Shown in pieces: positions 22,401-56,859 of a stretch of DNA of 64,000 nucleotides. Position 1 is the stretch's first letter. The number at the start of each line of letters is the position of its first letter. Below the pieces are notes generated by a model. The model did no database searches. It was not told the origin of the DNA and saw only the letters and a list, made by a program, of their open reading frames with translations. The translations under genes were made by a program, and so were the position numbers. Where the stretch lies: NCBI GenBank assembly GCA_024572335.1, contig GCA_024572335.1_3052.1; one strand, written 5' to 3'. Origin of the DNA: a phage.

Positions 22401-22679
22401 TTATTCTTTAAATCTAATCAATTTATTCATAGACTTTGAAACTTCTGCACGAACCTCATGTAAGTTTTTAAGCTGTTCAAGACGCTGCTCATAGTAAGCA
22501 ATTTCATCTTCTTCGAGACAGTCCTGTGAATCTTCTTTAAGATAACGTGCATAGTCCTGAAAAGCTTTACGGACTACTTCCTGAAAGTCATCAAGACTTT
22601 GAATTTTCTTAGGAGCGGCAGATACACGACGAGGTGCAGTATAATACTCATAACCAAACCCTGCACTTAATTGAGCCAT
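22401..22679 (-). CDS. hypothetical helical protein (92 aa from MAQLSAG)
   Basis: probable start at internal ATG abutting upstream ORF stop. Confidence 0.4.
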
Positions 22680-22981
22680 TAGTATTTTTCCTCTGGTTGG
22701 AACACTGCACGACAAGCCCACATACTGGCTTCTTTGAGTTTCGTTTTAGCAATAGTTAACTGATCGAGGCTTTCAGCATAATTCTTCGCGAGTTCATAGT
22801 CTTCACAGCTATTAAATGCTTCCCAAAATTCATCGTATAAAGCATCAAAGATAAGTCCTAAACGAACTTCAGCGTCTTTGATAGCATTCACTTTACCGAT
22901 TTTCTCTTCAGTATGCGGCTTATAACTTTTAATGTCTTCAATCATATTTGACTTCCTCACCAGTACATAAATCATATTCAA
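22679..22981 (-). CDS. hypothetical protein (88-100 aa)
   Basis: ORF; true start may be MIEDIK at 22945. Confidence 0.4.
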
Positions 22982-23159
22982 CTAAACGAATAGGTTCATG
23001 AATGCCATATCCTTGAACAGAAATTTCTGTCGTAGGATAAATTCCATCAATATCACCCATATTCCAGGCTTCGTTAAATTGCTGTTCGCCTGAATTACTA
23101 AACCACTCGGCGAAAGCATTTAGCACATCTTTAGAACCTTCAATAATTATCTTTGCCAT
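22938..23159 (-). CDS. hypothetical protein (73 aa)
   Basis: ORF, ATGA-type overlap with the GrcA-like gene. Confidence 0.4.
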   Translation of the reverse strand: MAKIIIEGSKDVLNAFAEWFSNSGEQQFNEAWNMGDIDGIYPTTEISVQGYGIHEPIRLVEYDLCTGEEVKYD

Positions 23160-23521
23160 TACAAACTCTCAGTAAAGGTACGAGCGATAACGTCGCGCTG
23201 CTGTTCCGGAGTCAGAGAGTTAAAGCGAACTGCATATCCGGATACACGGATGGTCAGCTGCGGATATTTTTCCGGATGCTTAACTGCATCTTCCAGAGTT
23301 TCGCGACGCAGAACGTTAACGTTCAGGTGTTGACCACCTTCAATTTTAACTGTAGGCTGTTGCTCAATTTCAATTTCACGGGCATGCAAACCGTAGAAAA
23401 TTTCTGGGTCTACAAAAGAGTCCTCTTTAAAGGTTTTGGAGACAATAATTCGTGCTTGAATACCATCTTCAAAATAAATAGTACCTTTATGTGTGCCTTC
23501 AAGAATTTGATATGCTTTCAT
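23159..23521 (-). CDS. autonomous glycyl radical cofactor (GrcA/YfiD-like)
   Basis: C-terminal ~60 aa [60 protein letters not shown] carries the RVSGY glycyl-radical signature, as in E. coli GrcA. Confidence 0.85.
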
Positions 23522-23528
23522 ATAAACC

Positions 23529-23855
23529 TCAATTAGAAAATAAATTTATCCAAGATTGTTCTTTAATTAAAAATGGCTCAGAATCATATGCCATTAAACT
23601 CTGTGTGATTAGTCCTTTAAAAGGCCCATCAATAAATTCCATGGTAAAATATGGAATTTTATTCATTAGCCGTGCATTAGGAGCAGTACATAAAACTCTG
23701 CATCCTTTGAATACGCCTTTTTGTAATTTGTATTGCTTAGGATAAAATTCGCTTAAAATGTTATTTTTTGCCAAAATTTCAAAATGATTCACCAATTTAT
23801 TTTTAATAGTTTTTGGCGAAAAATAAAGATATTCGAAAAGCTGAGTGTCTGTCAT
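23529..23855 (-). CDS. hypothetical protein (about 108 aa)
   Basis: probable start at MMTDTQ, abutting the upstream stop. Confidence 0.4.
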
Positions 23856-24394
23856 CATTGCATTCCAATCACAAAAAATTGAGGACGAGTAATACCACCA
23901 ATGCAACATTTACTATTACAGCAGTAGTGTACAGTGTCAATATGGACACTATAAATCTTATCCATATCAGGAGATTTGACAGGCTCATCAATTATATACA
24001 AAATTCGCGAAAGCGATAAACCTCTGAACTTGCTTCCTTTATTACCAATAAAACTGCGCACAGAATCAGTAAATAAACGAAAACGTATATCATCATTAGA
24101 ATAACGCGAAAATTCCTTTTTAATGTTATTTGCAGAAATTTTAGCGTAAGCTGAAGTATTAGAAAGAACAATAACTGTTCCGCCATCATACAGCCAATTA
24201 GCAGCAAAGTTAGTCACAGCAATTGATTTACCAGATTGACGTCCACCGTCTAGTCGAAGTGTGCAATACTGCTTAAATAATTCTTCAAATGGCGGGATAT
24301 ATTCGTTTTTACAAATTTCTTCTACTCTAGCATCAGAATGGTGTGTAAAAGCATTCATCAGGGATAGATAAGGACCAGTTAAAAATGTTCTCAT
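23855..24394 (-). CDS. stand-alone P-loop ATPase resembling the terminase large-subunit ATPase core
   Basis: Walker A LDGGRQSGKS and Walker B ILYIIDEP about 90 aa apart, compare gp17 in this window (SRQLGKT ... MIYIDECAF); ATG 24392-24394 (complement). Confidence 0.5.
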   Translation of the reverse strand: MRTFLTGPYLSLMNAFTHHSDARVEEICKNEYIPPFEELFKQYCTLRLDGGRQSGKSIAVTNFAANWLYDGGTVIVLSNTSAYAKISANNIKKEFSRYSNDDIRFRLFTDSVRSFIGNKGSKFRGLSLSRILYIIDEPVKSPDMDKIYSVHIDTVHYCCNSKCCIGGITRPQFFVIGMQ

Positions 24395-24535
24395 TTTATT
24401 CTCTCTAGGTTTGGGCCATTCCGTGGCGCATGAATTGTCCATTTCTGTATTTACCCATTACCGCACTTGGGCTCGACCTTATTACAGGTTGGCGGGAATC
24501 CCTCATAGAATCATGAGGTCCAGTTTGTTCCCATA

Positions 24536-25009
24536 TTATTTGAACGATTTAACGTACTGAATAGAACCCTTACTATTCACAAAGGCAATTTTACCATTTT
24601 TATTATACATGGTAGCAGTACGCTGATAACCATAGGTTTGTTTACCAGATTGATAACCAACTAATGCAAAATTATCTTCACCCATTTTATTCTGTTTAGC
24701 GCGAATGCGTTCATGACCATGTGCCATAAGAACCTTAGCATCACCAGTTGCAATGGATCGACGAGTTTTTTCATCTTCAACTGCATTAACAAAGTCGTCA
24801 AATGAATCAAATTTAGCATGAGATTTATTATACAATTTTCCATCTACTGCATAATTATATCCCTGTACATCCATCTCAACTTCTGTACCATCATCCAATA
24901 CAGCAGTAATTTTTTGACCTTTTTTAAATTTCAAAAGATCAGTAAAAGATTCAGCAATAATTTGAGAATTAATAGCTGCTTCAGTGATAAATTCTTGATA
25001 TGTTTTCAT
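24536..25009 (-). CDS. internal-protein-like head protein with capsid targeting sequence
   Basis: N-terminus MKTYQEFITE|A matches the T4 IP leader MKTYQEFIAE ending at a gp21 cleavage site; early promoter 25064-25093. Confidence 0.7.
   Translation of the reverse strand: MKTYQEFITEAAINSQIIAESFTDLLKFKKGQKITAVLDDGTEVEMDVQGYNYAVDGKLYNKSHAKFDSFDDFVNAVEDEKTRRSIATGDAKVLMAHGHERIRAKQNKMGEDNFALVGYQSGKQTYGYQRTATMYNKNGKIAFVNSKGSIQYVKSFK

Positions 25010-53721: not shown

Positions 53722-56859
<3,138 letters not shown>

Follow-up and report, generated by a model that had tools for sequence, protein, structure and literature searches.

The vs.8 gene and its reading frame

The DNA studied here is a stretch of 64,000 nucleotides (nt) from a phage (GenBank assembly GCA_024572335.1, contig GCA_024572335.1_3052.1), which we call the window. 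It belongs to a T4-like (Tequatrovirus) genome, in which the lysozyme gene e, nudE, an internal protein gene, regB, and the genes of gp17 to gp22 are recognisable. Our subject is a gene on the minus strand, for which a first-pass annotation, giving no strand, had proposed a stand-alone P-loop protein resembling the ATPase core of the large terminase subunit. The open reading frame starts with an ATG at position 24394, ends with a TGA at 23857-23855, and encodes 179 residues beginning with MRTFLTG. The product is 98.3% identical in amino acid sequence to T4 vs.8 (NP_049732.1 / T4p119, 'hypothetical protein'). It also matches the profile phrog_1488 over the full length (E=7e-79), residues 3-179 being placed on profile positions 2-177 of 177. 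As in T4, the gene has the neighbours vs.7, vs.6 and so on down to regB and is preceded by the same conserved leader; the upstream neighbour is denV in T4, whereas it is Ip4 here. The 6-kb surroundings are 97-99% identical to those of RB14-type phages. We regard the orthology of this gene to T4 vs.8 as nearly certain and, taken together with this, the homology of its product to the terminase. The gene is not new, its resemblance to terminase has already been published, and the window adds no new gene.

Longer reading frames can be drawn at this locus: the window permits 195 residues (ATG at 24442), and the T4 gene is annotated with 219. Owing to an 8-nt indel (window 24395-24442 compared with T4), the upstream extensions run in different frames in the two phages, and that of T4 is out of frame here. 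Since the longer extensions are not conserved and their frames differ, the start of the 179-residue frame is the real one. The T4 annotation is probably too long, the conserved product being the 179-residue protein starting with MRTFL. The same indel indicates that the leader encodes no N-terminal extension of vs.8. Length and start are kept in more than 1000 phage genomes. We found vs.8 in 1010 phage records, all of them from enterobacterial T4-like phages; T4-type gp17 occurs in 2153 records, which include cyanophages as well as Vibrio, Aeromonas and Acinetobacter phages. It is an accessory gene of enterobacterial T4-like phages. Table 1 lists the features considered in the following.

Table 1. 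Features of the vs.8 locus and the gp17 gene, with positions in the window
Feature	Position	Strand	Remarks
vs.8 orthologue, coding sequence	23855..24394	minus	179 residues plus stop; single-domain additional strand, catalytic glutamate (ASCE) P-loop protein
N-terminal helix LTGPYLSLMNAF, residues 5-16	24347..24382	minus	family-specific; L5, Y9, L10, L12, M13, A15 and F16 invariant; model helix 6-29
Walker A / P-loop GGRQSGKS, residues 50-57	24224..24247	minus	includes terminase-type Arg52; invariant in 18 relatives; aligned to gp17 S161-RQLGKT-167
Arg124-Gly125	24020..24025	minus	7 residues ahead of the Walker B strand; invariant in the family; aligned to invariant gp17 R245-G246
Walker B LYIIDE, residues 132-137	23984..24001	minus	catalytic Glu137; I134, I135, E137 and P138 invariant, D136 in 17/18; aligned to gp17 MIYIDE 251-256
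C-terminal strand FFVIGMQ, residues 173-179	23858..23878	minus	F173, G177 and Q179 invariant; last strand of the AlphaFold 2 model (E172-176)
Conserved non-coding leader, Ip4 stop to vs.8 start	24395..24536	minus	about 97% identity to T4 and RB14 despite a differing upstream gene (T4: denV)
Structured RNA motif, 57-nt core in the vs.8 leader	24446..24502	minus	covariance-model match of 73.7 bits; no Rfam match
vs.7 orthologue, 109 residues	23529..23858	minus	ATG overlaps the vs.8 stop (ATGA); phrog_2049, unknown function
vs.4 = Acb2 orthologue	22682-22945	minus	sponge of the cyclic oligonucleotide-based antiphage signalling system (CBASS); Pfam Acb2_Tad1_hairpin, E=2e-19
vs.3 = TadIV-1 orthologue	22404-22679	minus	type IV Thoeris sponge; phrog_2037; PMC13243611
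gp17, authentic large terminase	55027..56859	plus	paralogue for comparison; open reading frame of 610 residues; SRQLGKT 161-167, MIYIDE 251-256

Relationship of vs.8 to the gp17 ATPase

Conservation was determined in 18 relatives of vs.8 with identities down to 40%. Both Walker motifs (A and B) named in the first-pass annotation are located at residues 50-57 and 132-137 and are invariant in these relatives, apart from the partial variation within Walker B given in Table 1. The residues that never vary are D49-G-G-R-Q-S-G-K56, R113, R124-G125, I134-I135, E137-P138, F173, G177, and Q179; altogether, 34 columns of the family are invariant. For relatives with unsaturated synonymous divergence (dS of 0.09-0.63), the pairwise ratio of nonsynonymous to synonymous substitution rates (dN/dS) was between 0.04 and 0.13. 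Therefore, the motifs are real and under selection, and this purifying selection is strong. Residues 157-171 (window 23879-23926, minus strand; HYCCNSKCCIGGITR) form a cysteine-rich, hypervariable insert of low model confidence that separates the last helix from the last strand; its length and sequence vary even between close relatives.

The relationship to gp17 was established by comparing profiles. An hhalign comparison of the vs.8 family with the ATPase-domain family of T4-type gp17 gave a probability of 97.4% (E=1.4e-11, 123 columns) and placed vs.8 residues 30-156 on gp17 residues 140-274. In this register, the Walker A and the Walker B motifs of the two families coincide, and R124-G125 falls on gp17 R245-G246. 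With close vs.8 relatives only, the probability was 87% (E=3.9e-6) and the register was unchanged. The identity between vs.8 and gp17 over the aligned core is about 16-18%. A pairwise alignment with gp17, which the first-pass annotation had proposed as a check, gave tiny or out-of-register matches only when computed directly by BLASTP, but is in register when profile is compared with profile. The spacing of the Walker motifs, which was said to be about 90 residues as in gp17, is similar but not identical: the distance from lysine to glutamate is 81 residues in vs.8 (K56 to E137) and 90 in gp17 (K166 to E256).

Database searches led to the same family. A broad vs.8 family alignment, for which 40 sequences were taken after 1.84 billion representatives had been searched exhaustively, was turned into a profile and compared with the PDB sequences. 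The top three matches were T4 gp17 entries (E=9.5e-7, 1.8e-6, and 5e-6), and the next terminase was TerL of P74-26 (E=0.049). Because of this difference, the sequences point to an origin of vs.8 inside the T4-type terminase lineage; for the packaging ATPases P74-26 TerL, Sf6 gp2, and phi29 gp16, the signal is much weaker than for T4-type gp17. One FtsY, of archaeal origin, scored E=1.9e-5 with the broad profile, and part of the signal is therefore generic P-loop similarity. Among the PHROGs, vs.8 matches phrog_2, terminase large subunit, with E=8.7e-6. The Pfam family Terminase_6N is touched by 16 of the 40 family members (best member E=1.4e-4), vs.8 itself staying below the cut-off with 12.7 bits at a gathering threshold of 22 (E=0.1); Pfam and NCBIfam searches of vs.8 yielded nothing significant. 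No terminase was found when the profile of the close family was compared with the PDB sequences, and a one-pass search of the 1.84 billion representatives with a hidden Markov model returned 50 small proteins and no full-length terminase. Some annotation pipelines label vs.8 homologues 'terminase large subunit' or 'terminase-6 domain-containing protein'.

The predicted structure is less specific. A Foldseek search of the vs.8 model against the PDB gave generic ASCE matches with low template modelling scores (TM-scores) of about 0.45, which are not discriminating. The closest folds are nucleic-acid motor domains, and the first RecA-like domain of superfamily 2 (SF2) helicases was among those matched. 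SF2 helicases such as DDX1, Mfd, and RIG-I depend on helicase motifs and on a second RecA-like domain, whereas the vs.8 model consists of one domain with five strands; sequence matches of the broad profile to helicases were weak, with E-values of at least 0.088. As judged from model and profiles, the fold is that of a helicase/terminase-type ATPase, and the sequence is that of a T4-type terminase. The first-pass reading of a stand-alone, terminase-like ATPase core is in agreement with the sequence profiles, the phrog_2 match, the predicted fold, and an independent publication (PMC13601566).

A comparison with gp17 residue by residue specifies what vs.8 keeps, loses, and gains. With T4-type large terminases it shares an ASCE core with the P-loop arginine, a Walker B motif with catalytic glutamate, and the supported homology to gp17. 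According to the alignment, the residues kept are Arg52, Lys56, and Ser/Thr57 of the P-loop, the Arg-Gly pair ahead of Walker B, and Asp136-Glu137. Adenine binding in gp17 is reported (Mitchell et al. 2002; Sun et al. 2007) to be the role of Y142-Q143, a pair about 19 residues ahead of the P-loop, and not of the glutamine of R-Q-x-G-K, to which the first-pass annotation had assigned it. The vs.8 positions aligned to this pair are Y32-I33; they are not conserved in the family, the column opposite Q143 being variable, and the Tyr-Gln adenine motif is lacking in vs.8. A gp17 variant with the exchange Q143A serves as an inactive subunit (PMC8589836). The hhalign alignment stops short of gp17 motif III (T285-T-T287, the IIITTT strand); the last strand of the vs.8 model ends with the invariant residues G177-M-Q179 instead of TTT, and its equivalence to T285-T287 follows from topology only.

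With its 179 residues, compared with 610 in gp17, vs.8 ends at the fifth core strand. It is devoid of subdomain II, the hinge, and the C-terminal RNase H-like nuclease and portal-binding domain, which bears out the earlier statement that the frame contains no nuclease domain. In gp17, subdomain II closes the ATP cleft and, together with the C-terminal domain, couples the hydrolysis of ATP to the movement of DNA (domain layout: PMC9958956). As the packaging parts are lost, vs.8 alone can neither translocate DNA nor cut it; both a packaging motor and a nuclease are ruled out. Two elements have no counterpart in gp17, namely the invariant N-terminal helix LTxPYLxLMxAF, upstream of residue 30 where the hhalign match begins, and the invariant Arg113. 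Judging by its motifs, vs.8 can plausibly bind and hydrolyse ATP, and ATP binding as such is likely. Compared with subdomain I of the N-terminal part of T4 gp17 (Pfam Terminase_6N; PDB 2o0h, 3cpe, 3ezk), vs.8 differs by its low identity and by its early instead of late timing.

Seven distant small vs.8-like proteins (P0056, P0058, P0060, P0064, P0066, P0067, and P0068) carry GH[ST] in place of GK[ST] and have no Walker B glutamate; to judge from these exchanges, they are probably catalytically dead. We considered whether this subgroup signals that catalysis is dispensable in vs.8, but it is uninformative, three of the four members looked up being on contigs too short for context. The fourth (L010:6001-6486) lies on a 94-kb metagenomic contig beside a methyltransferase and a resolvase; none of its neighbours can be recognised as T4-like.

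Gene string and leader RNA

The order of the genes downstream of vs.8 is that of T4, i. e. vs.7, vs.6 (GrcA), vs.5, vs.4, vs.3, and regB. In T4, RB14, Klebsiella phage Roth01, phage EAWsc9, and Morganella phage vB_Mm5, vs.8 is located between the e/internal-protein genes and regB. The 4-nt ATGA overlap between vs.8 and vs.7 also exists in T4, Roth01, and EAWsc9, and the two genes are probably translationally coupled, as far as their arrangement tells; vs.7 is missing in vB_Mm5. The genes for vs.8, Acb2 (vs.4), and TadIV-1 (vs.3) are part of one co-directional early gene string. In T4, gp17 is a late protein. For vs.8 and vs.7 of T4, the classification is early both at the RNA and at the protein level (supplement of PMC9697503), which confirms the early-gene accessory locus proposed at the outset. 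Two further neighbours were identified. The product of vs.6 (23159-23521, minus strand) is an autonomous glycyl-radical cofactor similar to GrcA/YfiD (Pfam Gly_radical, E=2.5e-18), whose C-terminal half we take to be near-identical to the E. coli protein. At 24536-25009 (minus strand), there is a single internal protein gene of the Ip4 type (DUF7412, with the capsid-targeting start MKTYQEFI), as in RB14; T4 has denV-ipII-ipIII at this place.

The leader between this gene and vs.8 is conserved far above the coding sequence of vs.8. It is partly 75-82% identical in T4-like phages of Klebsiella/Raoultella, where the identity of the vs.8 proteins is about 37-43% and synonymous sites are saturated, and 63 of its columns never vary across 14 diverse T4-like phages, in which the vs.8 coding sequence has likewise reached synonymous saturation. 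Unrelated coliphages, namely Vequintavirus A51.2, APECc02, phiWec190, and the 45-kb phage Ivi, also contain a core of about 43 nt with 92-95% identity. In 28 distinct copies of the 57-nt core, 25 columns are invariant and the closing helix covaries: pair 13-46 occurs as AU15/UA5/UG4/CG3/GC1, pair 12-48 as CG20/GC3/UA3/AU1/GU1, and pair 11-49 as CG24/GC4, with no unpaired cells in any of them. The covariation score was 0.286, compared with 0.062 in shuffles (none of 500 reached 0.286) and at most 0.069 with the partners slid.

A covariance model of the motif detected one copy in the window and one at almost every T4-like locus searched; in the T4-like sequences inspected, the copy is situated directly upstream of the vs.8 start. 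In Klebsiella phage Roth01, it lies ahead of an Ip gene that precedes vs.8, and in Morganella phage vB_Mm5 the model found no copy. Two T4-like contigs (L053:5089-5256 and L055:9015-9183) have tandem copies ahead of a vs.8 homologue, the second copy being diverged (44.5 and 28.1 bits, respectively). In phages other than T4-like ones, which include Vequintavirus, phages of about 46 kb, and Ivi, the motif is usually on the same strand as a tRNA cluster and inside it or within a few hundred nt; at the Ivi and L037 loci, there is no tRNA nearby. In one of these non-T4 loci, an intrinsic terminator follows the motif. In five phage contigs of about 46-70 kb (L046, L048, L049, L054, and L056), repeat units of the form AGTGCYNTTWCCGTTGTG flank the motif and the tRNA genes in its neighbourhood and might serve the tRNA cluster as signals for processing or as promoters.

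Neither the leader nor the motif had a match in Rfam 15, no tRNA was found in the region upstream of vs.8, and the motif region had no match in 5,426 E. coli genomes. An 18-mer of the core was found on 7 contigs among 185,579 bacterial and archaeal species (596 Gb), none of them with the flanking motif, about 35 occurrences being expected by chance. A scan for promoters and terminators upstream of vs.8 gave no more sites than in shuffled sequences, and the single-sequence fold of the leader was no more stable than that of shuffles (z=0.24). A small upstream reading frame (PVIRSSPSAV) was rejected as an interpretation of the leader, the sequences of L025 and phage A51.2 having in-frame stops. 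A literature search with the core sequence of the motif returned nothing relevant. The motif looks like an undescribed phage RNA, either a leader/switch or a processed small RNA; it could be a switch responding to a ligand or a protein, or a stable small RNA. In the 3' part of the leader (24403-24421, minus strand), T4-like phages share a hairpin that does not vary, GCC-A(N)GGAA(Y)-GGC, whose loop contains GGA; it lies about 10-20 nt before the ribosome-binding region of vs.8. By its sequence, this hairpin resembles a CsrA-type binding site and is a candidate only.

Possible roles of vs.8

Published work on vs.8 deals with Avs2, a host sensor of terminase. In a screen of T4 proteins against EcAvs2 with AlphaFold 3, Evans et al. 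(bioRxiv May 2026; Nat Commun, 3 Aug 2026, PMC13601566) picked up vs.8, whose co-expression with the sensor caused toxicity. In the predicted complex, which has an interface score (ipTM, interface predicted TM-score) of 0.84, vs.8 occupies the terminase pocket, and the bridging ATP is kept. The authors describe vs.8 as an uncharacterised ATPase-like homologue of the ATPase domain of T4 terminase with conserved Walker A and B motifs and a highly similar structure. They call its role unknown and suggest an anti-defence protein which Avs2 evolved to recognise (PMC13601566). Ksap1 and Ksap2, non-terminase activators of Avs2, are comparable: they are small, lineage-restricted phage proteins of unknown function with a terminase-like central sheet, and are predicted to bind in the terminase pocket of Avs2. 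However, only a similar secondary structure is reported for them, whereas sequence homology to terminase with Walker A and B motifs is reported for vs.8 only; moreover, the phages that carry them belong to different groups, Dhillonvirus and Stephanstirmvirinae.

In the explanation that we favour, vs.8 is an early single-domain P-loop protein, and its ancestor is subdomain I of the ATPase of a large terminase of the T4 type. It may act as a small module loaded with ATP and show a terminase-ATPase-like face to a partner well ahead of gp17. The only partner reported is the terminase sensor EcAvs2, by means of co-expression toxicity and the AlphaFold 3 model. Towards host factors that are directed at terminase, vs.8 could be a mimic or decoy; alternatively, it could be an anti-defence protein whose recognition Avs2 has acquired. 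Because vs.8 shares its gene string with Acb2 and TadIV-1, we favour a role in the interplay of phage and host defence, although we attach somewhat more doubt than trust to it. The explanation as a whole, including this role, falls just short of an even balance in our judgement. Several observations weigh against it. The sole published experiment on vs.8 showed that EcAvs2 is activated and not blocked, which is seemingly harmful to the phage. In a study of type IV Thoeris (PMC13243611), Vs.3 to Vs.8 were each cloned, and the inhibitor named was TadIV-1, which is vs.3. The strictly conserved catalytic glutamate and two arginines suggest that there is real turnover, for which a passive decoy would have no use, and the low dN/dS values are unlike those of an arms-race interface. 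A bolder version, which we consider improbable, is that vs.8 might be a purpose-built terminase mimic, made minutes ahead of the real terminase and engaging or pre-empting Avs1-3 and Upx, the string from vs.8 to vs.3 being controlled by the RNA motif in the leader.

In an alternative reading, vs.8 would be an autonomous enzyme unrelated to defence, i. e. a minimal oligomeric ATPase, possibly completed by vs.7, that acts early on DNA, RNA, or a host protein and activates Avs2 accidentally by the shared fold. The invariance of the Walker A lysine, the Walker B Asp-Glu pair, Arg113, and Arg124 would fit such an enzyme, as would the strong purifying selection, the ATGA overlap with vs.7 that is kept in three other phages, and the closeness of the fold to nucleic-acid motor domains. 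Yet a lone RecA-like domain of 179 residues has no recognisable nucleic-acid-binding or second domain, and the restriction to enterobacterial T4-like phages fits an accessory function better than a core function; we consider this alternative rather unlikely, if worth attention. The first-pass annotation had also mentioned a modulator of packaging. Such a protein would enter gp17 pentamers or cap them, or it would titrate either gp16 or the portal, and thereby restrain the ATPase and nuclease of the terminase until heads are ready. It is true that vs.8 has its homologue in the very subdomain of gp17 from which the motor ring is formed, that it retains the Arg-Gly pair aligned to invariant R245-G246, and that the T4 motor tolerates inactive subunits (PMC8589836). 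On the other hand, vs.8 is early and gp17 is late, and at the low identity of the cores the subunit interfaces are unlikely to be preserved. In addition, the domains that couple hydrolysis to DNA movement are missing (PMC9958956), and many T4-type phages with the same terminase have no vs.8, so that such a modulator is very improbable.

Two further interpretations are effectively refuted. The truncation relative to gp17 and the missing nuclease domain could be signs of a decaying, functionless remnant of a captured or duplicated terminase gene, as the first-pass annotation had considered. This is excluded by the purifying selection described above; the number of invariant columns, the constant length and start, and the detection of the protein early in T4 likewise speak against decay. 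Similarly, the out-of-register BLASTP matches, the Pfam score below threshold, and the FtsY match could mean that the resemblance to terminase is superficial and that the true place of vs.8 is in an unrelated class of P-loop proteins, for instance the nucleoside/nucleotide kinases or the SIMIBI GTPases. However, an independent PSI-BLAST search of five iterations joined the vs.8 homologues to T4-like terminases (PMC13601566). In our profile searches, gp17 ranked first with all three motifs in register, and kinases appeared only at E>1 when the broad profile was compared with the PDB sequences. The assignment to a kinase or a similar family, which the first-pass annotation had named as the outcome that would speak against its proposal, was not obtained.

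Terminase is the phage protein most widely sensed in bacterial immunity. A second, early, nuclease-free copy of the sensed domain raises the question of whether the phage benefits from it, as from a decoy or an anti-defence factor, or whether it is a liability exploited by sensors; this question has already been posed in the literature of 2026. The insight that vs.8 is related to terminase is correct and no longer new. What is added here is an independent confirmation of the homology, an account of kept and lost residues, a corrected start codon, and the conserved RNA leader. The leader appears to be undescribed, having a match neither in Rfam nor, by its core sequence, in the literature; it could explain the regulation of the operon, and its RNA motif may be the more novel finding.

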